Of a stretch of 64,000 bases of DNA, positions 25,914 to 36,931 are shown piece by piece. How positions within the stretch are numbered: position 1 is the first letter of the stretch; every line of letters starts with the position of its first letter. This stretch comes from a virus. Made by a program: the position numbers and the translations under genes. The notes beneath the pieces are model-generated. The model was not told where the DNA came from, did no database searches, and saw only the letters and a list, made by a program, of their open reading frames with translations. The stretch is from the UHGV virus genome UHGV-1558314. One strand, written 5' to 3'.

Positions 25914-26837
25914 TTACATTGAGATGTTAAGAATTCGCTTGACTACAGAATCGATATCATTGTTTGCAGCATTGCACAGTTCCATGCGAACATTAGAATC
26001 AATGAACAAGTTATGAAACGTTGACGCAGCTTGAACAAGATGACACCAGATTGCTCGTCTACACATTGCAAGTTCTCTGTCAGCTTTGCTGCATTGCATG
26101 AGATACGAGTTTGCTCTATCACTGTAATATGACTGAGCATACTTGCATTGACGTTCAGCGTCATTTACAATGTACATGTATGGAGTCTTGACGTCAAAGT
26201 AAATTTTGCAATACAATGACTTGTCATCAATTGCAAAGTCATCAATATTGACAGTCAAATCTGTCATTGCATACGTCAAACCTCTGTCATGCAAATATGC
26301 AAACATTGCAGTATAGCATTGATGCAATGTAGCAATCAATTCACATTTGTCAGTTGACTGAACAACTTTGTATGCTGCTTTGATTGCCTTTGCATATATG
26401 AGCTGCAAACACAGCTCTTTGCGACGCAATGCTTTGCGTTCAAATTGTCGCTCATATTTGATGTGCTTACGTATGCGTTTGCGTTCTGTAAGCAATTTCG
26501 ACAAGTCAATACGAATGTATTTTGATACATTTGTAACAGCGGTGTCAATACTGTGCCACTGTTCAATGTCGTCAATGTCAAGTTCATGCGCAAGTGAATG
26601 TGACACTCTGCCGTACATGTATAAGACTTTGCAGTTGTCATCGCATAATGCATACATACACCATGATGACAGTTCAATGTCATGCTCAAATGTGGCAAAA
26701 TCAACTTCTACTGCAATATTTGCGTTTGTGCATATGCATTTTTGAATGTCAATGTCACTTAAGTACCACTTGAAAAATGAATCGACTTCTGCAGAATGTT
26801 GACTTATGATGCGCTTGAACAGCTTGTTCGATTTCAT
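25914..26837 (-). CDS. hypothetical protein
   Basis: 307-aa ORF. Confidence 0.45.
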   Translation of the reverse strand: MKSNKLFKRIISQHSAEVDSFFKWYLSDIDIQKCICTNANIAVEVDFATFEHDIELSSWCMYALCDDNCKVLYMYGRVSHSLAHELDIDDIEQWHSIDTAVTNVSKYIRIDLSKLLTERKRIRKHIKYERQFERKALRRKELCLQLIYAKAIKAAYKVVQSTDKCELIATLHQCYTAMFAYLHDRGLTYAMTDLTVNIDDFAIDDKSLYCKIYFDVKTPYMYIVNDAERQCKYAQSYYSDRANSYLMQCSKADRELAMCRRAIWCHLVQAASTFHNLFIDSNVRMELCNAANNDIDSVVKRILNISM

Positions 26838-28015: not shown

Positions 28016-28133
28016 CTGATTTAATATATAATATGTCAATAAATTTCACATATAAAGTCTTTTCGCTTATGAAAACTACTCAACTCTGGTTTGAACGCCA
28101 GCAGTCAATCGCGGGGGGGCTCTTCGTGACACA
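28016..28133 (+). repeat. promoter/leader module, copy A (inverted partner at 31048..31160)
   Basis: About 113-118 bp near-identical to the reverse complement of 31048..31160, with 2-3 mismatches/indels by eye in the upstream part; contains ATG 28069 and G7 tract. Confidence 0.8.
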
Positions 28134-28185
28134 GGCATGCGCATATACGTGCGTGACAATGCTGATAACATTGTTAATGGGCTAA
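28069..28185 (+). CDS. leader ORF (MKTTQLWFERQQSIAGG...) containing a G7 tract; overlaps 28137..28769 in the -1 frame
   Basis: ATG 28069; G7 at 28113-28119; stop at 28185. The frame of 28137..28769 is open from 28095 (TPAVNRGGALRDTGMRIY...). Confidence 0.4.
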   Translation: MKTTQLWFERQQSIAGGLFVTQACAYTCVTMLITLLMG

Positions 28186-28769
28186 CTTGCTATTTGCACT
28201 GTATTGAAACAGGTCGAACACTTCAAAGAGACTTGCACACAAGCAATAATGGTGATGGCGTCACATTTTACATAACTGGTGATGACTATAAGCAATTAGT
28301 CGGCTCAACAAAAGACGCACAATTTTATCTTATTGACACGCCTGATGCTGCAGATATGTCTTGGTCATCTGCAGCATTTACACTTAGATATGGCGCAGAT
28401 ATAGTTAACAACACACTAAATGTCAATATTGAAGCGTTCAAATCATGCGAAGTAACAATAACTAACAGTGGCAATACATGCAGTTGCACCGCAATGCTTG
28501 AATCTGCATTGCCAGTGGCAATTAAACTGTCAACAATTTGCAATACATCAGTAGCATCTAATGTCGATGTGTCAGTTAACATAGCTGCAAATAGCTTGAC
28601 TGCTAATTTTAGAGTTGGCAATAGCTTATCTGCAAAATTGACGCATGTCGGCATATGGTCTATTGCTAATGCTTCTTATGTTTCACCAATATATGAGGGT
28701 GCTATAATTGTGAAAACACTGAACGACATATTTCACGTGTTCATAACAGATAAGACAACACTTGGCTAA
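28137..28769 (+). CDS. cassette protein 1 (210 aa), Ser/Thr/Asn/Val-rich; function unknown
   Basis: ORF on the rare plus strand, directly after conserved leader copy 1. Confidence 0.55.
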   Translation: MRIYVRDNADNIVNGLTCYLHCIETGRTLQRDLHTSNNGDGVTFYITGDDYKQLVGSTKDAQFYLIDTPDAADMSWSSAAFTLRYGADIVNNTLNVNIEAFKSCEVTITNSGNTCSCTAMLESALPVAIKLSTICNTSVASNVDVSVNIAANSLTANFRVGNSLSAKLTHVGIWSIANASYVSPIYEGAIIVKTLNDIFHVFITDKTTLG

Positions 28770-28804
28770 GTGTACATATCTTACAACATTCAAACATATA
28801 GCAT

Positions 28805-28858
28805 ATGAAAACTCCACAATTTTGGTTTGAGCGTCAACAAGGGCTAGCGGGGGGGCTC
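28805..28858 (+). repeat. diverged third copy of the leader module
   Basis: atgaaaactccacaattttggtttgagcgtcaacaagggctagcgggggggctc versus copy A; upstream part not conserved. Confidence 0.6.
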
Positions 28859-28861
28859 TAA
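28805..28861 (+). CDS. leader ORF copy 2 (MKTPQFWFERQQGLAGGL*) with G7 tract
   Basis: ATG 28805; G7 at 28849-28855; stop TAA at 28859-28861; about 75 percent nt identity to leader copy 1. Confidence 0.3.
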   Translation: MKTPQFWFERQQGLAGGL

Positions 28862-28898
28862 ATTAGTCTACCTGCAACTTGTTATTGGCGACGCTTCG

Positions 28899-29327
28899 TT
28901 GTACAACTTTGGCACTACTGAAACAATGGCGATACAAGGTACAATATCGCTTGACAATGTCACAGTTAACATACCAACGTCAGGCTTTCCTATCAAAATG
29001 ATGGAATGCCGCGGTGGTGAAACTCATGCAATTGGTGCGTTAATGATGCCAAAAGCTTATGACTACTCAAACTTTGCTGCAAAAATTGGTTTTGGCTGCT
29101 ATGCAGCAGATGGTCGTGGCACTGGCAACGTTTACAACATCAATGTGTATGCCAACATTAACAACACAAGCCCTGGTGGTAATCCCATACTGTTAACTTC
29201 TATGGCATGGCAATATCCATTAGGCGTTGGTGATAAGCTTACATTGCCAATGTCAAATCCATCTGTCAAAGTTAACAATGGAGATATCGTGTCAATCATA
29301 CTTAAGAATGCAAGGAAAGTCAGCTAA
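28899..29327 (+). CDS. cassette protein 2 (142 aa; ATG start probably at 28926)
   Basis: ORF-track start is TTG at 28899; in-frame ATG at 28926 (MAIQGTISLD...). Frame is +1 relative to leader copy 2. Confidence 0.5.
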   Translation: MYNFGTTETMAIQGTISLDNVTVNIPTSGFPIKMMECRGGETHAIGALMMPKAYDYSNFAAKIGFGCYAADGRGTGNVYNINVYANINNTSPGGNPILLTSMAWQYPLGVGDKLTLPMSNPSVKVNNGDIVSIILKNARKVS

Positions 29328-29351: not shown

Positions 29352-29390
29352 AATGCTCCACTGAGAAATCTCAGTGGAGCATTTTTTGTG
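29352..29390 (+). terminator. rho-independent terminator between convergent genes 28899..29327 (+) and 29412..29822 (-)
   Basis: 14-bp stem aatgctccactgag / ctcagtggagcatt, loop aaat, then TTTTGTG on the plus strand. Confidence 0.65.
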
Positions 29391-29411
29391 CTGTTTGGCA
29401 ATTTTAGACAT

Positions 29412-29822
29412 CTATATGCTATAGTATGCCCTATTGACAAGCAACACATAGTCACCACACAGTAATGCAGCGTACGACATCATGCAATCATCTTGCGGCG
29501 CACTGACATCTGCATATCCTTTTGCGTACATAACCATGTTGTTGTGCACAAAGTCAACTTTAGCATTTGCATAAATTGCATCAGTGCCACGGTCAACTAT
29601 AAATGATTCACCGCGTTCAAGCGCATTTGCATTAATTGTCACGGTAGATGTACCAGCATTAATGCTGTACAATGTATTTGGCACAGCATTAATGCTGGTA
29701 CTTGATACCGTCATAAACTTAGCAGCAAATATGCTATCAACCAAATCACCAAATTGTGCTGAGGTGGGTTTATCTCCGGTTTCAAAATACGTTTTGAGTA
29801 CCGAACGTGTTTGAACTGCCAT
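29412..29822 (-). CDS. cassette protein 3 (136 aa)
   Basis: Convergent with the plus-strand genes; upstream short ORF (29957 down to 29841) carries another G7 tract. Confidence 0.5.
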   Translation of the reverse strand: MAVQTRSVLKTYFETGDKPTSAQFGDLVDSIFAAKFMTVSSTSINAVPNTLYSINAGTSTVTINANALERGESFIVDRGTDAIYANAKVDFVHNNMVMYAKGYADVSAPQDDCMMSYAALLCGDYVLLVNRAYYSI

Positions 29823-30017
29823 ATGTTTCGATGTTTTAAGTTATGCAATGTGACATGAAAGCAACACTGCAAACTTTTCATCGAATGCAATGTCACCTAC
29901 GTTATAACAAGAGATTGAGCCAGATATGTGACCCCCCCAATTCAATTTGAATGTCATAAAGCTTATGAGTTTGTAAATGTTTGTTTTGTTTATATATTTT
30001 GACTGCCCATATGTACA

Positions 30018-30094
30018 TATCAAAACAACATCTTAGTTGTTTTGCATCTTGCATCAAAACAACATCTTAGTTGTTTTGCATCTTGCATCAAAAC
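30018..30094. repeat. tandem direct repeat, 34-bp unit x2.3, each unit with a 9-bp-stem hairpin
   Basis: tatcaaaacaacatcttagttgttttgcatcttg / catcaaaacaacatcttagttgttttgcatcttg / catcaaaac; internal inverted repeat caaaacaac-atctta-gttgttttg. Confidence 0.8.
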
Positions 30095-30269
30095 TCATAG
30101 GCATTGCATTCAAAGATGAAGATTTTACAGCAGACATTGCACTTGATAACGCGTCATTTTATGATGGCCAAACTGCATGGCTAACTGGAAAGCTTCTGGC
30201 AGCATTGTGTTAAGTATAAAACAGTTACATTGAAAGCTAACACAACAGTAAACATCGCCATTTAATGCA

Positions 30270-30315
30270 CATCAAAAACTCCACTGAACAATTAAGTTCA
30301 GTGGAGTTTTTGATG
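30270..30315. terminator. bidirectional hairpin terminator downstream of gene 30332..30985
   Basis: catcaaaaactccactgaac-aattaa-gttcagtggagtttttgatg; stem flanked by A5/T5 so either strand reads hairpin plus U-tract. Shares core CTCCACTGA with the 29352 hairpin. Confidence 0.6.
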
Positions 30316-30331
30316 TGTAGTGTGCAAAATA

Positions 30332-30985
30332 CTACAACATATTCCAGTTTGTTATGTCATACATGTTGAAGCTGAACGCTGATGTGATGTATCCAAGAGT
30401 AGTCAAGATGTCCACACCAACTACAGGGTCATTTGCAATAAGCAAAATACAGTTAGTGACAGACGTATCGACCATATTGTCTGCTTGAAAATCATTGTGC
30501 ATCAACCAGTCAGCAAAGCAGATGTCATAGTACACAGGATTGCCTGCAAATACTTTATCATTTCCAAATGCTTCTGATGGGTGCGACAATGTAGATGCAA
30601 GCAGTTGAATGTCTTCATCTGTGCAAGACGATTTAATGTCATCAAGCACAATTGCTACACGCTGCTCATTTGTCTCTGAATCACCTCTATGAATTTCATG
30701 AATCCAAGGCAAGCATGCAAGTGCATCACCACATGTCAAATTGACATTATCAAGTGTCTCGCCTTGACCTGCGTAGCAATATAAAGTGGAGCCAGTGCCA
30801 TAACGTAGACAGTCATTTATGCTGACATTATCAAGATACACTGAACAAATTGACAATGCACCTGCACCAAGCCTGTTTGCAGGAATTGTCAACTTATATG
30901 TTGGCACGCCATTTGACTGCACTGTAATAGGCGAGCCCGCTAATAATTCACCAGTGTCAGCATCATAGCATTCGACTTCTTGCAT
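30332..30985 (-). CDS. cassette protein 4 (217 aa)
   Basis: Preceded by leader copy 3 (ATG 31110, G7 at 31066-31060 on minus); gene frame is -1 relative to leader and open through the tract (TPAVNRGGALRDTIISGT...). Confidence 0.55.
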   Translation of the reverse strand: MQEVECYDADTGELLAGSPITVQSNGVPTYKLTIPANRLGAGALSICSVYLDNVSINDCLRYGTGSTLYCYAGQGETLDNVNLTCGDALACLPWIHEIHRGDSETNEQRVAIVLDDIKSSCTDEDIQLLASTLSHPSEAFGNDKVFAGNPVYYDICFADWLMHNDFQADNMVDTSVTNCILLIANDPVVGVDILTTLGYITSAFSFNMYDITNWNML

Positions 30986-31047
30986 AGTCGCATATGCAGC
31001 TTCAAGTAGTGAACCATCTGCTTTGTTGATAGTGCCGCTGATAATAG

Positions 31048-31160
31048 TGTCACGAAGAGCCCCCCCGCGATTGACTGCTGGCGTTCAAACCAGAGTTGAG
31101 TAGTTTTCATAAGCGAAAAGACTTTTTGTATGTGAAATTTATTGACATATTATATATCAG
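31048..31160 (-). repeat. promoter/leader module, copy B (inverted partner of 28016..28133)
   Basis: Reverse complement reads ctgatatataatatgtcaataaatttcacatacaaaaagtcttttcgcttATGaaaactactcaactctggtttgaacgccagcagtcaatcgcgggggggctcttcgtgaca. Confidence 0.8.
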
Positions 31161-31171
31161 GCAGCAATATG

Positions 31172-31210
31172 CACAAAAAAGAAGAGCATCGGTTAAAAAC
31201 CGATGCTCTT
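31172..31210 (-). terminator. rho-independent terminator after BACON-like gene 31259..31873
   Basis: Stem aagagcatcgg / ccgatgctctt, loop ttaaaaa; minus strand continues CTTTTTTGTG. Confidence 0.55.
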
Positions 31211-31258: not shown

Positions 31259-31873
31259 TTACGATACAGTCCACGGGCAGTTTGCGGTAACCGTAACCGT
31301 AACGGCAGGAGTACCGGCCTGAGGAATCGTGATTTCCTGCTTGTCGAGTACCAGCGTCGGGTCACCAGCAGCCTGAACGATTGCAATCTGAGCAGTCTGG
31401 GCACCGTTGGCAGTTACCAAAATCGATGTCGTGCGCTCGTTAATCGTCAAGTTGGCAGGAATGTCAAGCTCAATGCTGAAAGCAAACTCGGCGTTGGCAC
31501 CAGGGTCACCAGTGATTGCTACGCCATTGTTGGTTTCTACACCAGCAACTGCGTACTTTTTAGGCAGTTCGATAACAAACTCGCCGCCCTCAACGATGCT
31601 GAACGTCAGCTTCGATGAGTTAGATACACCGGTTACGGTAAGAGTACCGCCAGCTTTAGGAGCTGACATCTCTGAGCCGTTGTCAAATGACACGAACTCA
31701 GCCTTTGCAGTCTGCTGTACATTGTACGTTGAAGGCGCTGCAATACCAGCACCCTGAACGGTTACAACACCAGTACGTGCAATACGACCAGTGTGGGCGT
31801 CAGCAGAGTTGGAAATTGAACCATTACCCGAACCAGATGTCGGGCTAAGTTTCAACCATGCGGGTTTAGCCAT
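31259..31873 (-). CDS. BACON-like domain protein
   Basis: N-terminus MAKPAWLKLSPTSGSGNGSISNSADAHTGRIARTGVVTVQ fits the BACON pattern (W..s..sGsG.g......R.a.itv) as recalled from memory; paralog of the two downstream genes. Confidence 0.5.
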   Translation of the reverse strand: MAKPAWLKLSPTSGSGNGSISNSADAHTGRIARTGVVTVQGAGIAAPSTYNVQQTAKAEFVSFDNGSEMSAPKAGGTLTVTGVSNSSKLTFSIVEGGEFVIELPKKYAVAGVETNNGVAITGDPGANAEFAFSIELDIPANLTINERTTSILVTANGAQTAQIAIVQAAGDPTLVLDKQEITIPQAGTPAVTVTVTANCPWTVS

Positions 31874-31931: not shown

Positions 31932-32531
31932 TCAAAGAATTTTCCAAGAAGCGTTTGATGTCAAATTCATTGTGATTGTCGTGCCATCATCATCAACTGT
32001 CACAGATTCTGTACTCAGCACAAGAGTTGCTGCAGCAGCTGCTTGAGTAATGCTAACATTCAATGATTTGCCACCAGGAGTTGTCACTGTCAATACAAAT
32101 GATTTCTGTTCAATTGTCAAATTTTGCGGTATTGTAGCTTCAATTGACCATGCAAACTTTGCAATATATCCAGGGTCATTTGCAATTGCTGTGTCATTTG
32201 TTGCAGCGACGCCATTTGCTGTGTACGCAGTCGGAATGCTAAGATTCGGATTTGTAGTTGCAAACTTAAGTTTTGCTGCGTTAGACTCACCAGAAACAAC
32301 AATTTTTGTGGTTGCCGCAGAAACATTGTATGATGTTGTGCCAGATACAAATTCTGCAAGAGCAGCTTGGTTGATTGTTGCTTGCTTTGTAACTGTTGGT
32401 GTGGTCTTCGTTTGCACAGTCGCAATTGTGCTACGAATGCCTCTGCCGGTATGAGCTCCTGCAGTAAATGCCAGGATATCATTACCCTCACCAGACATTG
32501 GTGAACACTGTGCCCATATAGCTTTTGCCAT
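31932..32531 (-). CDS. BACON-like domain protein
   Basis: MAKAIWAQCSPMSGEGNDILAFTAGAHTGRGIRSTIATVQ; ends with ...NVSITQAAA. Confidence 0.5.
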   Translation of the reverse strand: MAKAIWAQCSPMSGEGNDILAFTAGAHTGRGIRSTIATVQTKTTPTVTKQATINQAALAEFVSGTTSYNVSAATTKIVVSGESNAAKLKFATTNPNLSIPTAYTANGVAATNDTAIANDPGYIAKFAWSIEATIPQNLTIEQKSFVLTVTTPGGKSLNVSITQAAAAATLVLSTESVTVDDDGTTITMNLTSNASWKIL

Positions 32532-32602: not shown

Positions 32603-35600
32603 TTATCGAACAAGGAATGATGTACCAACAACCATATTCGGGATTGCCAAGCCATTGCCAGACTGGCTTACTGCAACTGTGCCACTTGTGTAGCCTGACA
32701 ATGCAGCAGTAATTGTTGCCGACCTGCTGTTATCTGAACCCCAGTTGTTTGCAGCTGACAATGTCGAACCGCTGATTGTGAATGCACCATTGTTCGATGA
32801 GTACGTTGGAGTAACCGCAGCATCTGATGTTGTAGACTGACCTGTCGTGTACTTTGTGACAGTTCGACCTGTCGTAGACAATGTTGCAGTGCCACCAGCA
32901 GCCCCAAAGCTTGTAACAGTTGAGCTGACAATCAGAGTCTTCGTAGTCGAAGTCACACTGTTGGCTTCCTGTGTAGCAGTGATTGCTTTTGAGCCAGTTT
33001 GACCATTCAACGCAACCGTCATATTGACTGTAGCGGTTCTTGCAGAACCAGCAGTTGTGCCACGATTTGCAGCAGTCAATGAACCGGTTGTACTACTGTT
33101 AAGCGTAAAGCCAGTAGTTGTAGCCATACTGTATGAAATTGTACCGCCAGATGTAATAGTAGTTTTTGAACCACTTGTGTACGTTGCTGTCTGCGAGTAT
33201 GCTGGCGTGCCTGTTGGAGTCTTTGTTGCACCTGCTGCAGCAAATGTTGCATATGATGTTGCTGTAGTAACTGTGACTGCGCTGTATGATACACTGTTAG
33301 CTGCTTGATAAACATCAAGAGCTTTTGTAGCAGTCTTAGACCCTTCACCAGTAGCAGTTGCAGTCAAAGTGCCAATCTTTGTACGAGCTTTGACTGTAGT
33401 GCCAAGCGATGATGCGCTGACTTTTGTGCTATACGCAATGCTAACTGAACCTGGCCTTGTGCTGCCAGACGTATATGTAATTGTCTGTGATGCACTGATG
33501 CCAGACATTGATGCAACTTCACCGCCACCAGCAGGAATATCTGACACAGTTCCACCAGAAATTGTAACCGCGCCATATGTCGTAATTGCATTTGCAGCTT
33601 GGTACACATCGACTGCTTTTGTTCCAGATTTGCCATTGACTGTTACTGTAACAGTAGATGTTGTAATCTTTGTGCGGGCTTTAGCAGTAGTGCCAAGTGA
33701 ACTACCAGACACTGCGCCAGTAGACGTTGTTACACCAGTGCCAGACCATGATTTGCTGCCACCAGACGTAACTGTCTGTGTTGAGCCACTTGACCACATA
33801 ACTGATTGACTGAATGACACTGAAGGCGTAACTGAGCCACCCTTTGCAGGAACATCGCTATAAGTCATCGAAACTGTGGGCGTACCATATGTAGCAGCAT
33901 TAGCATTTTGAGATGCAGTAGCAGTCTTTGTTCCACTGATGGCTTTTGTGCCTGCAGCATTGTATGACGCAGTAGGCGTCCATGTAGCTGTTACAGTCTT
34001 TGTGACTGTCAGCGATGTAGTTGCGCCACTTGCAGTAGTGCCTTTTGATGATGCGGTTATAGCACCAGTAGATGTATTGAGTGCAGTGAACAATCCTGAT
34101 GCGCCTGGCCAACTATATGATGTTGTAGTTGACAATGAACCATACGTAGATGCTGGCGCAGTAGTTGAAGTACTGCCACTACTAAAATGGTATGTTACTG
34201 TGTTTGCACCATTTGACGGTGTAGATGTTCCGCCACCTGCAGCAATTGCAGGATATGACATCGAACCAACTGCAATATTGAGTGCAGTCACATAGTTGCC
34301 TGCCTGATAAATCGTGGCAGACTTGCTGGCAGATTTGCCATTCATTGTGACTTTAACAGTCAGTGTGCCTGCAGTAGTCTGGTTAGATATTGCGGTGTCT
34401 TTTGATTGCGCAGTGACTGTTGACGTATACTCAATTGTTCCGCCGCTTGTCAGTGTTTCTGTCGTCTTTTCACCAGTAGCATATGTCGTAGTTTTGACCT
34501 GCGAGTAAGTTACTGTGCCAGATTTTACAGAACCTCCGCTTGCTGCAATGATAGTTGCAGACGGCGTCAAGTTAACTGTGATATCGCTATATGTAACTGT
34601 GCCAGCAGATTGAGCTGCTTGATAAACATCTGCAGCTTTTGATGCAGACTTGCCATTGAGTGCTACTGTGACAGTCAATGTGCCAATCTTTGTTCGTGGC
34701 TTAACTGTTGTGCCAAGTGATGATGCAGTGATACCTGCTGCTGGACTGTATGAAATTGTTGCACCAGTAGTGATGTTCTGTGTTGAAGTTGATGTGTATG
34801 TTGCAGTCTGCGAATATGACACATTGCCGCTCTTAATTGTACCACCAGTTACAGGAATATCTGCTACAGTGAAGCTTGAAATTGTAACTGCGCCATATGA
34901 CACAGTGTTTGCAACTTGCTTGACTGTGCAAGAACCAGTTTTTGTAACACCGCCCTCAGTATATGAGCCAGAAATTGTAATGCTGCGTTCTGCGCCTACG
35001 ACTGTTGTGCGATTTGCTGCAGTTACTGTAGCAGTCGACAATGTAAAGCCAGTTGCTGAACCGCTAAGTGTTGCAGATACTGCAGCAGATGACGTTGAGC
35101 CTGATGCATATGTGTATGACGCTGTTGAAGTGATTGTAGTTGAACCGCCACCAGCTGCCAATGTTGCAGCGCCAGGTGTCAATGTCAAGCCATTCAGCGT
35201 CTTTGAGTTTGCAGTTTGTGTTGCAGTAGCAGTTTTTGTAGCAGACTTGCCATTGATTGCTACCGTAACTGTGACAGCATTTGAAGCATCAGTAGAGCCT
35301 ACATATGATGTGCCCATTGACGTTACAGTCAATGCGCCACTTGTCGTATTCAATGTCCAGCGTGACTTAGCAGTCATTGCATAAGACAATGTAGCGCCAC
35401 TTGTCAATGTGCCACCTGAGCCAGCTACGCCATTCCAAGTCCAAACTTGTGAATATGAAACAGTTGGGTTTGATGTACCACCAGCAGGAGCAATGTTAGC
35501 ATATGAGAATGTTCCAATGACAGGCGTTGCATAGACTTTAGCACCTGCAGCTTGGTTGAACGTAATATCTTTTGATGCAGACTTACCATTTGCAGTGACT

Positions 35601-36931
35601 GTCAAGGTGACAACAAACCCATTACGTGCAACAGTAGAATTGTTGTTTGTCACTGTGACATTCAAGCCAGACAAGCTGTAGCCTGTTGCAGCAGTTTTGA
35701 CGGCAGCAGTCCATATGCCGCCTGACGTGTTACTATCAGTTGAGCCGCTGCTGTATGTCATTGACTGCGTAAATGTTGCAGATGCATTAGCTGCAACAGT
35801 TTGACCTGCTACTGCAAGAGCAACTGGTGTTGTCTTTGTAATGACTGGTGTGCCGTATGTAATGCTGTTGGCTGCTTGTGTAATTGATACAGTAGCAGTT
35901 GCATTGCCATATGACGCTGTGCCGCTAAATGACCGAGCATCACCGACAGTCTTACCACGATTTGCAGATGTTACAGAATTTGCAGATATTGTAAAGCCTG
36001 TTGCAGTGCCTGTAATTGTTGGCTTGACATTTGTTTCAGTAGATGTAACAACACCGTTCCATGTCACAGTGTACGTACCAGTGATGGTTGATGTTCCACC
36101 TGCTGCAGTATGACTTGTTGAATATGTGTTCAAAGCAAGTTTGTACACAACTGAACCTGCAGCTTGTGAGCATTTAACGGTCTTCGATAATTCATGACCA
36201 CTTACAGTCAGTGTTGGTGTAACTGCTGCAGTTGACGTGTTGTTCGGTGTATTGACAGTGATTGTTGCAGGACCTGTGCCAGATGCTTTTGAGACTGACC
36301 AACCTGCAGGTACGCCCGAAATTGTCCATGCAAAGTCAGGATTACAAGAAATTGCGAATGTCTTCGATTCACCCTTTGCAACAAATGACAAAGTTTCTGG
36401 TGATACTGCCAATGTTGCACTTGCACCAGCTTGATTTACTGTAAATGTTGCAGACTTGCCACCAGGCGTTGACAATGTGAAAGTGAATGCCTTTGCAGCG
36501 ATTGCAGTATGTGCAGCAATCTGCACTCGTACAATGACTTCAAATTCTGCATTGACACCAGGGTCATTGTCAAAATTTGTATTAAGCGCATAATCTTTGC
36601 TTGCAACAGTTACGCCAAGCACTGTGCCACTTGCAGTACCGCCAGTACTGCCAAGCACAAGTTTTTGTGCATTTGTGACACATTTCAATGTTGCAATAGT
36701 GCCACCATTTGACGCAATGTTTGTAGATGCAACTGTAGCTCGTATAGTTTCACCAGGAGACTCTTGCAATACTGCACAGTTTTCAGTTACTACTGGTGAA
36801 CCTGTAGTTGTTTGCGCAGTAAAGCTGCCAGACCTGTTATTTCGACCAGTATGCACAGATGCTTTGACAGACAACTGTGAGTTGCCTGTGCCAACATCAG
36901 GTGTAACTGTCAACCAAGTAGGCTTTGCCAT
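32603..36931 (-). CDS. giant Thr/Ser-rich repeat protein with N-terminal BACON-like domain and many tandem Ig-like repeats (probable fibre/adhesin)
   Basis: N-terminus MAKPTWLTVTPDVGTGNSQLSVKASVHTGRNNRSGSF; repeated ~90-aa units ending NGKSASK....YQAAN. Confidence 0.6.
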   Translation of the reverse strand: MAKPTWLTVTPDVGTGNSQLSVKASVHTGRNNRSGSFTAQTTTGSPVVTENCAVLQESPGETIRATVASTNIASNGGTIATLKCVTNAQKLVLGSTGGTASGTVLGVTVASKDYALNTNFDNDPGVNAEFEVIVRVQIAAHTAIAAKAFTFTLSTPGGKSATFTVNQAGASATLAVSPETLSFVAKGESKTFAISCNPDFAWTISGVPAGWSVSKASGTGPATITVNTPNNTSTAAVTPTLTVSGHELSKTVKCSQAAGSVVYKLALNTYSTSHTAAGGTSTITGTYTVTWNGVVTSTETNVKPTITGTATGFTISANSVTSANRGKTVGDARSFSGTASYGNATATVSITQAANSITYGTPVITKTTPVALAVAGQTVAANASATFTQSMTYSSGSTDSNTSGGIWTAAVKTAATGYSLSGLNVTVTNNNSTVARNGFVVTLTVTANGKSASKDITFNQAAGAKVYATPVIGTFSYANIAPAGGTSNPTVSYSQVWTWNGVAGSGGTLTSGATLSYAMTAKSRWTLNTTSGALTVTSMGTSYVGSTDASNAVTVTVAINGKSATKTATATQTANSKTLNGLTLTPGAATLAAGGGSTTITSTASYTYASGSTSSAAVSATLSGSATGFTLSTATVTAANRTTVVGAERSITISGSYTEGGVTKTGSCTVKQVANTVSYGAVTISSFTVADIPVTGGTIKSGNVSYSQTATYTSTSTQNITTGATISYSPAAGITASSLGTTVKPRTKIGTLTVTVALNGKSASKAADVYQAAQSAGTVTYSDITVNLTPSATIIAASGGSVKSGTVTYSQVKTTTYATGEKTTETLTSGGTIEYTSTVTAQSKDTAISNQTTAGTLTVKVTMNGKSASKSATIYQAGNYVTALNIAVGSMSYPAIAAGGGTSTPSNGANTVTYHFSSGSTSTTAPASTYGSLSTTTSYSWPGASGLFTALNTSTGAITASSKGTTASGATTSLTVTKTVTATWTPTASYNAAGTKAISGTKTATASQNANAATYGTPTVSMTYSDVPAKGGSVTPSVSFSQSVMWSSGSTQTVTSGGSKSWSGTGVTTSTGAVSGSSLGTTAKARTKITTSTVTVTVNGKSGTKAVDVYQAANAITTYGAVTISGGTVSDIPAGGGEVASMSGISASQTITYTSGSTRPGSVSIAYSTKVSASSLGTTVKARTKIGTLTATATGEGSKTATKALDVYQAANSVSYSAVTVTTATSYATFAAAGATKTPTGTPAYSQTATYTSGSKTTITSGGTISYSMATTTGFTLNSSTTGSLTAANRGTTAGSARTATVNMTVALNGQTGSKAITATQEANSVTSTTKTLIVSSTVTSFGAAGGTATLSTTGRTVTKYTTGQSTTSDAAVTPTYSSNNGAFTISGSTLSAANNWGSDNSRSATITAALSGYTSGTVAVSQSGNGLAIPNMVVGTSFLVR

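Follow-up and report, generated by a model that had tools for sequence, protein, structure and literature searches.

The hairpins and their setting

This study concerns two hairpins, h1 and h2, and the gene cassettes around them in a 64,000-nucleotide stretch (the window) of the virus genome UHGV-1558314. Nearly all genes of the window are on the - strand; the segment from 28.0 to 31.2 kb is the sole part with + strand genes and is composed of repeated modules, whose coordinates are collected in Table 1. A reading made from the letters and their open reading frames (ORFs), the sequence-only reading, had described two terminator hairpins with a common stem core, one on each side of a small gene. 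Both hairpins are present with perfect stems, and the arms of the core are CTCCACTGA and TCAGTGGAG. The position that it gave for h1 holds, while the perfect stem of h2, which it had placed at 30270-30315, is slightly longer. The gene between the hairpins, gene C, was also correctly placed, but the ~445 nt from its start to h2 hold more elements, namely a short leader ORF with a run of seven G (G7), a 34-nt tandem repeat and a gene remnant.

Hairpin h1 lies between the convergent genes B and C, at a distance of 24 nt from the stop codon of the former (29327) and 28 nt from that of the latter (29412). On the + strand its 14-15 bp stem is followed immediately by the T-run TTTTTGTG, the 3' tail reading TTTTGTG, and an A-run/T-run flank (CACAAAAAATG) is found on one side only. 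Hairpin h2 has the layout CACATCAAAAA-CTCCACTGAAC-aattaa-GTTCAGTGGAG-TTTTTGATGTG, in which A5 and T5 runs fall within the stem, and on both strands the core stem is followed by TTTTTGATGTG. It is situated 14 nt beyond the stop of gene D (- strand) and also 3' of the + strand gene remnant. Folding the RNA of both strands gave energies of -29.2/-26.6 kcal/mol for h1 and -40.4/-37.4 kcal/mol for h2, with z-scores between -6.4 and -10.2. The features of a rho-independent terminator are thus found together: a stable G+C-rich stem-loop and then a U-run (h1 on the + strand, h2 on both), a complementary A-run upstream (A5...T5 for h2 in the window, A6...T6 in the related loci L071 and L077), and a site just 3' of stop codons, a placement that recurs in relatives. 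With its internal A5/T5 runs h2 has the shape of a bidirectional terminator, and we propose for h1 a role as terminator for gene B and as a weaker one for gene C.

Table 1. Features of the cassette locus, in window coordinates
Feature	Coordinates	Strand	Description
Leader L1 copy a	28021..28132	+	ATG 28069; peptide MKTTQLWFERQQSIAGG; G7 28113-28119; left inverted-repeat arm
Gene A	28069..28769	+	Frame open from the G run; G7 is one base off the leader ATG (OFF)
Leader L1 copy c	28801..28859	+	ATG 28805; peptide MKTPQFWFERQQGLAGG; G7 28849-28855; 76% identical to copy a
Gene B	28805..29327	+	Frame open from the G run; OFF at G7; G6 or G9 restores the frame
Hairpin h1	29352..29383	none	AATGCTCCACTGAG-AAAT-CTCAGTGGAGCATT; 14-15 perfect pairs
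Gene C	29412..29822	-	136 amino acids (aa); own ATG
Leader L2	29841..29957	-	Short ORF MTFKLNWGGHIS (MTFKLNWGG...); G7 29932-29938
34-nt tandem repeat	30019..30086	none	Two copies (ATCAAAACAACATCTTAGTTGTTTTGCATCTTGC), each with a 9-bp hairpin
Hairpin h2	30268..30317	none	CACATCAAAAACTCCACTGAAC-AATTAA-GTTCAGTGGAGTTTTTGATGTG; 22-bp perfect palindrome
Gene D	30332..31110	-	Frame open from the G run; OFF at G7; G8 gives a 259-aa leader-fused protein
Leader L1 copy b	31047..31160	-	G7 31060-31066; 97% identical to copy a; right inverted-repeat arm
Unrelated terminator hairpin	31182..31210	-	AAGAGCATCGGTT-TTT-AACCGATGCTCTT and T-run

The shared core and the conserved pairing

Five copies of the core CTCCACTGA are present in the window, where 0.25 would be expected, and none of 100 shuffles had as many. 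Four of these five copies are the arms of h1 and h2, and the fifth (60623) lies inside a large ORF and forms no hairpin. Core-bearing hairpins of the form CTCCACTGA-N2-12-TCAGTGGAG were found twice (0.00 expected). Simulated stems, matched in length and composition to the eight strongest hairpins of the window, shared a 9-mer in at least one pair with a probability of 0.007; for the h1/h2 pair the value was 0.0006. The likeness of the two hairpins extends beyond the 9-mer, since each has GCACA and an A-run 5' of the core (h1 being read on the - strand) and each begins its outer stem with AATGC, which for h2 is seen in the L077 lineage, where the stem is 27 bp long.

We gathered 21 related loci (here given L numbers) from IMG/VR, JGI, ENA and Logan assemblies, mostly of human-gut metagenomes. 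Hairpins of the core family, as variants h1, h2 and h3, were found in 16 of the 21, always intergenic and in the same hypervariable locus, mostly between convergent gene ends and with A-run/T-run flanks. Variant h1 has the form AATGCTCCACTGAGA..TCTCAGTGGAGCATT, variant h2 the form A5-6-CTCCACTGAAC-aattaa-GTTCAGTGGAG-T5-6, and variant h3 the form A5-9-CTCCACTGA-gaat-TCAGTGGAG-T5-9, the h3 flanks in L074 being A9...T9. Orthologues of h1 are present in L045, L074, L075, L076, L077-79, L084, L089, L090 and L010. Variant h2 is a self-contained block of ~55 nt that stands in varied gene contexts in L045, L071, L075, L076 and L077-81/84, and the commonest lineage, L077, carries h1, h2 and h3. Given that all three variants occur together in L077, and that the AATGC outer stem and the GCACA and A-run are also held in common, the shared core of h1 and h2 is a matter of common ancestry and not of chance; the suggestion of a duplicated element, made in the sequence-only reading, is thus supported.

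Changes within the family tend to preserve the helix. In an alignment of 10 sequences the 15-bp helix is 96.7% paired, against 27-54% for slid controls; four of its pairs are altered on both sides, including a change from U-A to A-U in the core, and the observed covariation was reached in 0 of 500 shuffles. In L010 (IMGVR_UViG_3300045988_152288, 174.6 kb) h1 has CTCC>CACC within the core and GGAG>GGTG in the opposite arm, and CACCACTGA is a variant of the core CTCCACTGA. Two single changes in h2 (L045, L075) still allow a G.U pair in RNA of the same sense as the intact neighbouring gene. Loops vary freely, and that of h1 flips between AAAT and ATTT among orthologues. In many relatives the position 3' of gene D, occupied here by h2, is filled by an unrelated hairpin, GACTCAGCAA-TA-TTGCTGAGTC (also written AAAAAGACTCAGCAA-TA-TTGCTGAGTCTTTTT), and the gene that we call 'extra' is followed by the unrelated hairpin in L011, L071 and L073, while h2 takes that place in L075. 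Outside the locus, the 174.6-kb related genome has no exact core hairpin. In the 2.9 million contigs of IMG/VR the exact hairpin was met on 8 unrelated contigs, singly and mostly without T-runs, and we conclude from these few matches that it is not a widespread site. An Rfam scan of 27.8-31.4 kb returned generic miRNA-type hairpin matches only, far under their gathering scores. The compensatory changes, the unrelated hairpins at the same position and the scarcity of IMG/VR matches together argue for selection on the structure and not on the 9-mer.

The unrelated terminator hairpin at the right end of the locus (Table 1) closes the upstream BACON-domain gene directly before leader copy b, giving a terminator-then-promoter layout. 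Its stem is identical in all relatives and its loop of 2-3 nt varies (TTT/AAA, ATC/GAT, AA). Loop flips of this kind, in this hairpin and in h1, suggest that short inversions or template switches take place inside palindromes. A different palindrome follows gene A in L016 (53-102) and L076 (11296-11345): it is perfect over 22 bp, reads AAAACTCCTCAAATCATGAACA-atataa-TGTTCATGATTTGAGGAGTTTT and consists of sequence from the 5' portion of the type-2 leader, ATG included.

Leader modules, G tracts and module boundaries

The second recurrent component of the locus is the 110-nt leader module L1, of which the window holds three copies, one of them (copy c) diverged. Each consists of an AT-rich promoter-like stretch, an ATG with the leader peptide MKT[TP]Q[LF]WFERQQ[SG][IL]AGG, and exactly seven G. 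Four G7 runs occur in the 64 kb against 0.02 expected, and they are the only G/C runs of at least six in the window. Each lies at the 5' end of a cassette gene, on its coding strand, three behind the L1 module (MKTTQLWFERQQSIAGG) and the fourth in the L2 ORF before gene C, an ORF in frame with gene C whose TAA precedes the gene C ATG by six codons. In this window none of genes A, B and D is in frame with its leader ATG (OFF); gene A with an 8-nt tract gives a 233-aa protein, and gene D at G6 is in frame with a TTG inside the leader. The substitutions between leader copies are synonymous and non-synonymous in the ratio 6:6 in the leader frame, against 2:11 and 1:12 in the other frames. For the segments between the tract and the annotated ATG the corresponding ratios in the gene frame are 8:4 (gene D) and 7:2 (gene B), other frames giving 1-2 synonymous to 7-10 non-synonymous changes. 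These segments, which precede the annotated internal ATGs, thus change mainly at synonymous sites of the gene frame, so the true coding sequences would begin at the leader. Scans for promoter consensus sequences (sigma-70 type, the T4 late promoter TATAAATA and the Bacteroidota TAnnTTTG) yielded no usable signal, so the promoter of the leader module is a presumed one.

Tract lengths range from G6 to G11 across the 21 loci. Gene D has tracts of G6, G7 and G8; gene A has G7, G8, GGGGGTGG, GGGGGGTGG and G11; 'extra' and g289, which have one leader in common, have G9, G10 and G11; and the gene C leader (L2) has G7, G8, G9 and G10. Genomes that are otherwise near-identical differ in tract length, as do L072 and L073 (G9/G10) and L077 and L078 (G10/G11). 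Gene D is called as a protein of 217 aa at G7 (internal ATG), of 251 aa at G6 (leader TTG) and of 259 aa at G8. The G8 form is known as P0059, a 259-aa leader-fused D protein from a public assembly that starts MKTTQLWFERQQSIAGGALRDTIISG (also listed as MKTTQLWFERQQSIAGGALRDT); the contig in question is our locus L076 and has G8 in both D and A, its A protein being ON as well. In L074 gene A has the interrupted 8-nt tract GGGGGTGG, which gives the 233-aa leader-fused A protein and looks like a locked-ON allele, and in L010 gene B has a different leader (MNITMNWGG) with G7 in frame (ON). The locus thus has a homopolymer at the 5' coding end far above chance, with in-frame and out-of-frame alleles among close relatives. 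ON, OFF and apparently locked-ON alleles, as judged from the reading frame, are present among these genomes; slipped-strand mispairing would account for them, and the variation would presumably serve as a switch. A degenerate scan of metagenomes for the leader returned 58 matches, of which 4 are relatives and the others mostly chance.

Homology between the window and its relatives breaks at 29386/29403, just past h1. Hairpin h2 stands as an isolated homology block (30263-30318), homology resuming at 30333 with the gene D stop, and the leader-module ends at 28132 and 31047 are further limits. Almost every genome has its own number, order and orientation of genes between these joints. In these alignments the ends of homology blocks are seen to coincide with hairpins, which may have been used as joints in recombination. 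Two of the leader copies also form 110-nt inverted repeats (28021-28132 and 31047-31160) that bracket a 2.9-kb cassette segment. They are 97% identical to each other and 99% identical to copies in other genomes, and the flanking DNA is ~93% identical. In L085 and L086, independent assemblies from different studies (the latter labelled human gut), the left flank is joined through the repeat to gene D, which is the arrangement expected after an inversion of the repeat-bracketed segment; the reciprocal junction was not recovered among the related loci. Pfam and PHROG searches revealed no recombinase, invertase, integrase or nuclease domain in the ORFs of 25.9-32.5 kb, and in this light the simplest mechanism would be general recombination, with the 110-nt repeats as its substrates. 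Just to the left of the cassette locus, a 307-aa ORF without a family match (25914-26837) is cleanly missing (window 26038-26807/26815) in L010, L016, L020/L085 and L086.

The cassette ORFs are mutually unrelated apart from the C family, and PHROG and Pfam scans of genes A, B, C and D gave no match. For gene A, AlphaFold with a shallow alignment reached a pLDDT of 32.8 and no usable model. Gene C has 43 family matches, none informatively named; its paralogues scarcely differ over the N-terminal 34 aa, vary in the body and have a conserved C-terminus. Its AlphaFold model (pLDDT 88.6) has best structural matches that are modest (E about 1e-3, TM about 0.45-0.5), and these are a phage capsid spike, the N-terminal anchor of TSP4 from phage CBA120, T4 gp9 and gp10, and baseplate proteins. 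Among predicted viral structures most matches are uncharacterised, and the named ones are tail, fibre and tropism proteins. The predicted fold of gene C thus resembles the anchor domains of phage spikes and fibres. To the right of the cassette locus lie two paralogues of ~200 aa (31259-31873 and 31932-32531, 38% identical) and a 1442-aa protein (32603-36931); both paralogues and the N-terminus of the large protein have BACON matches, above the Pfam threshold in the 204-aa protein only. These BACON-domain proteins are probably fibre or carbohydrate-binding components. From the gene C fold, the adjacent BACON-domain genes and the 1442-aa protein we infer that the locus is in the host-recognition part of the genome.

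The phage itself is an uncultured, distant T4-like myovirus of ~175 kb from human-gut samples. This assignment follows from the window proteins, from the lack of a near GenBank match and from contigs in gut metagenomes. The proteins include a 1308-aa fused SbcD/SbcC-like nuclease, a UvsW-type helicase, a baseplate wedge protein, a phage sigma factor and BACON-domain proteins, and the helicase is at most 31% identical to those of T4-like and jumbo phages, including Chryseobacterium and Tenacibaculum phages. A megablast of the locus against 50,697 GenBank phage records gave no match, and near-identical contigs of 174.6-176.9 kb were found in gut metagenomes, some of them labelled human gut. The host is probably a member of the Bacteroidota, on account of the BACON domains and a Bacteroides-style lipoprotein in a relative.

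Several further observations concern the cassettes. The lipoprotein just mentioned is encoded by an extra cassette of L010 (10514-11506, - strand) and has a signal peptide, a lipobox Cys, beta-propeller-like repeats and a weak BNR_2 match; this sub-threshold BNR-like match was the only one that Pfam and PHROG gave for the relatives' cassette genes. A G8 run lies in frame just past the lipobox, so that this surface lipoprotein, itself encoded by the phage, may also be phase-variable. In L089 whole type-2 leader cassettes occur as inverted duplicates with G10 runs. In L045 (421-432) gene B has TGG>TGA in mid-gene (MAWQYPL > MA*QYPL), either a pseudogene or a sequencing error. Within gene C of the window, 29650-29701 is a 19-nt perfect inverted repeat with a 14-nt spacer, formed by two copies of the palindrome AGCATTAATGCT, which encodes S-I-N-A twice; the inverted repeat is kept at ~80% identity in L074 and L075. 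Tandem units of ~78 nt just after h1 in L045 (600-830) and L010 (10220-10350) repeat the gene C N-terminal block (…PTSAQFGDLID…) in the orientation opposite to the window's gene C and without a start codon, and they look like partial or silent copies, or recombination scars, in the conserved N-terminal block. The ATCAAAACAACATCTTAGTTGTTTTGCATCTTGC tandem repeat numbers 3-5 copies in relatives, variant units included (L011 700-880; L050 1680-1779), where it lies between divergent type-2 leader modules; it could be an operator or promoter array.

Explanations, known systems and significance

We consider it quite probable that h1 and h2 are paralogous bidirectional rho-independent terminators and, as such, the cassette boundaries of a hypervariable locus (~28.0-31.2 kb) of poly-G-regulated cassettes. 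The core stem CTCCACTGA/TCAGTGGAG, with a U-run after it and an A-run before it, would stop transcription arriving from either side, and the hairpins would insulate neighbouring, mostly convergent, cassettes. Since each cassette ends in a hairpin and begins with a leader module, these elements may also act as joints at which cassettes are duplicated, swapped and lost, and the core that h1 and h2 share would have come down from such duplications. Translation of genes A, B and D would start at the leader ATG (MKTTQLWFERQQSIAGG) and pass through a hypermutable poly-G tract whose length sets ON or OFF, G8 being ON for A and D. A stronger form of this idea, in which the hairpins and the leader/poly-G modules make up a dedicated cassette system, the joints serving to shuffle, duplicate and invert ORFs and the poly-G tracts to switch each one independently, is one that we put forward only tentatively.

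Several points weigh against the favoured reading. Termination by the hairpins is deduced from their sequence. The tail of h1 on the - strand is T-poor (ATTGCTTATATG), so termination of gene C by h1 may be weak. Stems with 22-27 perfect pairs exceed the needs of most intrinsic terminators and might serve some further purpose as DNA. Most members of the hairpin family are close relatives, and the covariation controls correct only partly for kinship. Most assemblies carry OFF tract lengths, the commonest form of gene D (G7, 217 aa) being present on 52 contigs, so expression may be rare or may need transcriptional or ribosomal slippage as well.

The length of the stems bears directly on the alternative that the palindromes are chiefly DNA-level recombination hotspots, with termination secondary or absent. 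By this account, which is compatible with the favoured one, a hairpin or cruciform would be extruded and then cut, for example by the phage's SbcCD-like nuclease, or would cause template switching, and the breaks would drive cassette exchange. Such an account is suited by the exact ending of homology blocks at the hairpins, by the travelling of h2 as an isolated 55-nt block, by the perfect stems, by the encoded 1308-aa SbcD/SbcC-like fusion and by the flip of the h1 loop between identical flanks, which is typical of template switching within a palindrome. The A-run/T-run flanks and the position after stop codons are nevertheless terminator features that a DNA hotspot would not need, the G.U-retaining changes on the transcribed strand point to pairing in RNA, and equivalent junctions are occupied by unrelated terminator hairpins, so as the chief function we think it rather unlikely. 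The sequence-only reading had itself suggested a recognition site, as one option beside a duplicated element, in place of independent terminators. Here CTCCACTGA would be recognised by its sequence, as DNA or RNA, by some protein of phage or host, such as a recombinase, a processing nuclease or an antiterminator, and the hairpin would be incidental. The 9-mer is indeed invariant in most members of the family, and what distinguishes h1, h2 and h3 is their loops, flanks and stem tops, but the core was changed in a compensatory manner in h1 of L010 and has single changes in L045, L075, L076 and L077; unrelated hairpins take its place at equivalent positions, the neighbouring ORFs have no recombinase or nuclease domain, and the exact hairpin is missing from the rest of the 174.6-kb relative and at chance level in IMG/VR. 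A recognition site in place of terminators is on these grounds improbable.

Two more explanations carry still less weight with us. Terminator stems are short and G+C-rich, partial matches between them are common, and other hairpins of the window have 6-mers in common, so two independent terminators might have come to share a 9-mer by chance or convergent composition. This is very improbable in view of the simulated probabilities for this pair and for any pair, the further likeness in GCACA, A-run and AATGC, the same core in a third variant (h3), and a locus that duplicates other modules, as in the three leader copies. Least probable of all, in our judgement, is a small mobile element (IS200/IS605-like, MITE, REP or integron attC) with the hairpins as its ends and gene C as its cargo. 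Two related hairpins do flank one small ORF, and in several relatives core hairpins bracket a C-family array; yet gene C is no transposase or integrase, has no Pfam match and has a predicted fold like that of fibres and spikes, the spacing and content between the hairpins differ in every genome, and neither the rest of the window nor that of the 174.6-kb relative has further copies. Particular candidates were rejected as well. The stems are perfect, without the extrahelical bases or RYYYAAC/GTTRRRY cores of an integron attC, and the neighbouring ORFs have no integrase domain. For IS200/IS605 or MITE ends, gene C is about the size of TnpA but has no Y1 transposase match, and dispersed copies are lacking. 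A diversity-generating retroelement was rejected on the ground that the differences between leader copies are not adenine-specific, and a stop-codon recoding that would join leader to gene was also considered and rejected.

If h1 and h2 are the bidirectional rho-independent terminators that we favour, they resemble known examples in their G+C-rich perfect stem, short loop, T-run and A-run, post-stop site and compensatory change, and differ from them in stems of up to 22-27 bp and in the presence of several copies with one core within a locus of 3-6 kb. Gut Bacteroidota are well known for phase-variable surfaces, and to our knowledge phase variation encoded by phages has been demonstrated mainly in Campylobacter phages. 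In the latter (Fletchervirus), the nearest counterpart of the locus in regulation, hypermutable polyG tracts are said to lie in genes near host-recognition genes, and changes in tract length reportedly shift the frame and yield subpopulations that express different proteins. The present locus is similar in having G runs, near probable host-recognition genes, whose length sets the frame. It differs in that the tract is at the 3' edge of a shared, duplicated leader placed on unrelated ORFs, the cassettes form an array with hairpins as limits and inverted repeats around it, the host is probably one of the Bacteroidota, and the length variation is known from comparison between assemblies. Phages Mu and P1 have invertible host-range segments, G and C respectively. 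The inverted repeats around ~3 kb, with oppositely oriented alternative genes near tail-fibre genes, recall these, and the one inverted junction, present in two independent assemblies but recovered without its reciprocal, would fit the same picture. The serine recombinase invertase that lies adjacent in those systems was not found in the ORFs of 25.9-32.5 kb, and inversion would not be needed for expression, because each 110-nt repeat has its own promoter-like region and start codon.

In architecture the nearest described counterpart is the PeSL (promoter-early stem-loop) of T4-type phages, a recurrent motif in which a stem-loop is joined to an early promoter of the sigma-70-like type. PeSLs are concentrated in hyperplastic regions, where insertions, deletions and replacements begin or end, and a part in modular shuffling has been proposed for them, with mini-circles or swapped modules as the products of recombination between copies (Arbiol et al. 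2010, PMC2839356; Comeau et al. 2014, PMC4122927). Like them, our hairpins and leader modules are confined to a variable locus and stand at the ends of homology blocks. Unlike them, h1 and h2 lie between gene 3' ends with no conserved promoter alongside; here the repeated promoter-like module stands apart and also carries a leader peptide and a poly-G run, the sequences do not resemble those of PeSLs, and the modular swaps are deduced from comparative maps. A composite layout exists only at 31047-31210, where a hairpin adjoins leader copy b, its promoter being a presumed one. We have not filed h1 and h2 as PeSLs, because they are without the promoter half that defines these. The T4 internal-protein loci, as described by Rao & Black (2010, PMC3012670), are polymorphic and contain diverse small ORFs with only a capsid targeting sequence (CTS) in common. 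Our locus is alike in that diverse ORFs share only a short N-terminal leader (MKT.Q.WFERQQ..AGG) and unlike in its apparent poly-G switch, which the T4 genes are not known to have; the likeness of our leader to a CTS is only a lead.

Brought together in this human-gut phage, beside probable host-recognition genes, are a multi-cassette array, an apparent poly-G switch and inverted-repeat brackets. The locus also carries a warning for annotation, as gene callers pick internal ATGs or a TTG (217 or 251 aa for gene D) and miss the real start. Taken alone, the hairpins would be ordinary terminators; their shared core led to a compact locus, in an abundant uncultured human-gut phage, where hypermutable G runs, placed after a shared leader, apparently switch several unrelated genes. 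Should the dedicated cassette system be true, shuffling of the PeSL type, inversion of the Mu type and phase variation of the Campylobacter-phage type would be combined in one locus, and a single genome would give a combinatorial repertoire of virion or host-interaction proteins that is heritable but reversible. A phage counterpart to the phase-variable surfaces of its hosts would bear on how phages and bacteria coexist in the gut.

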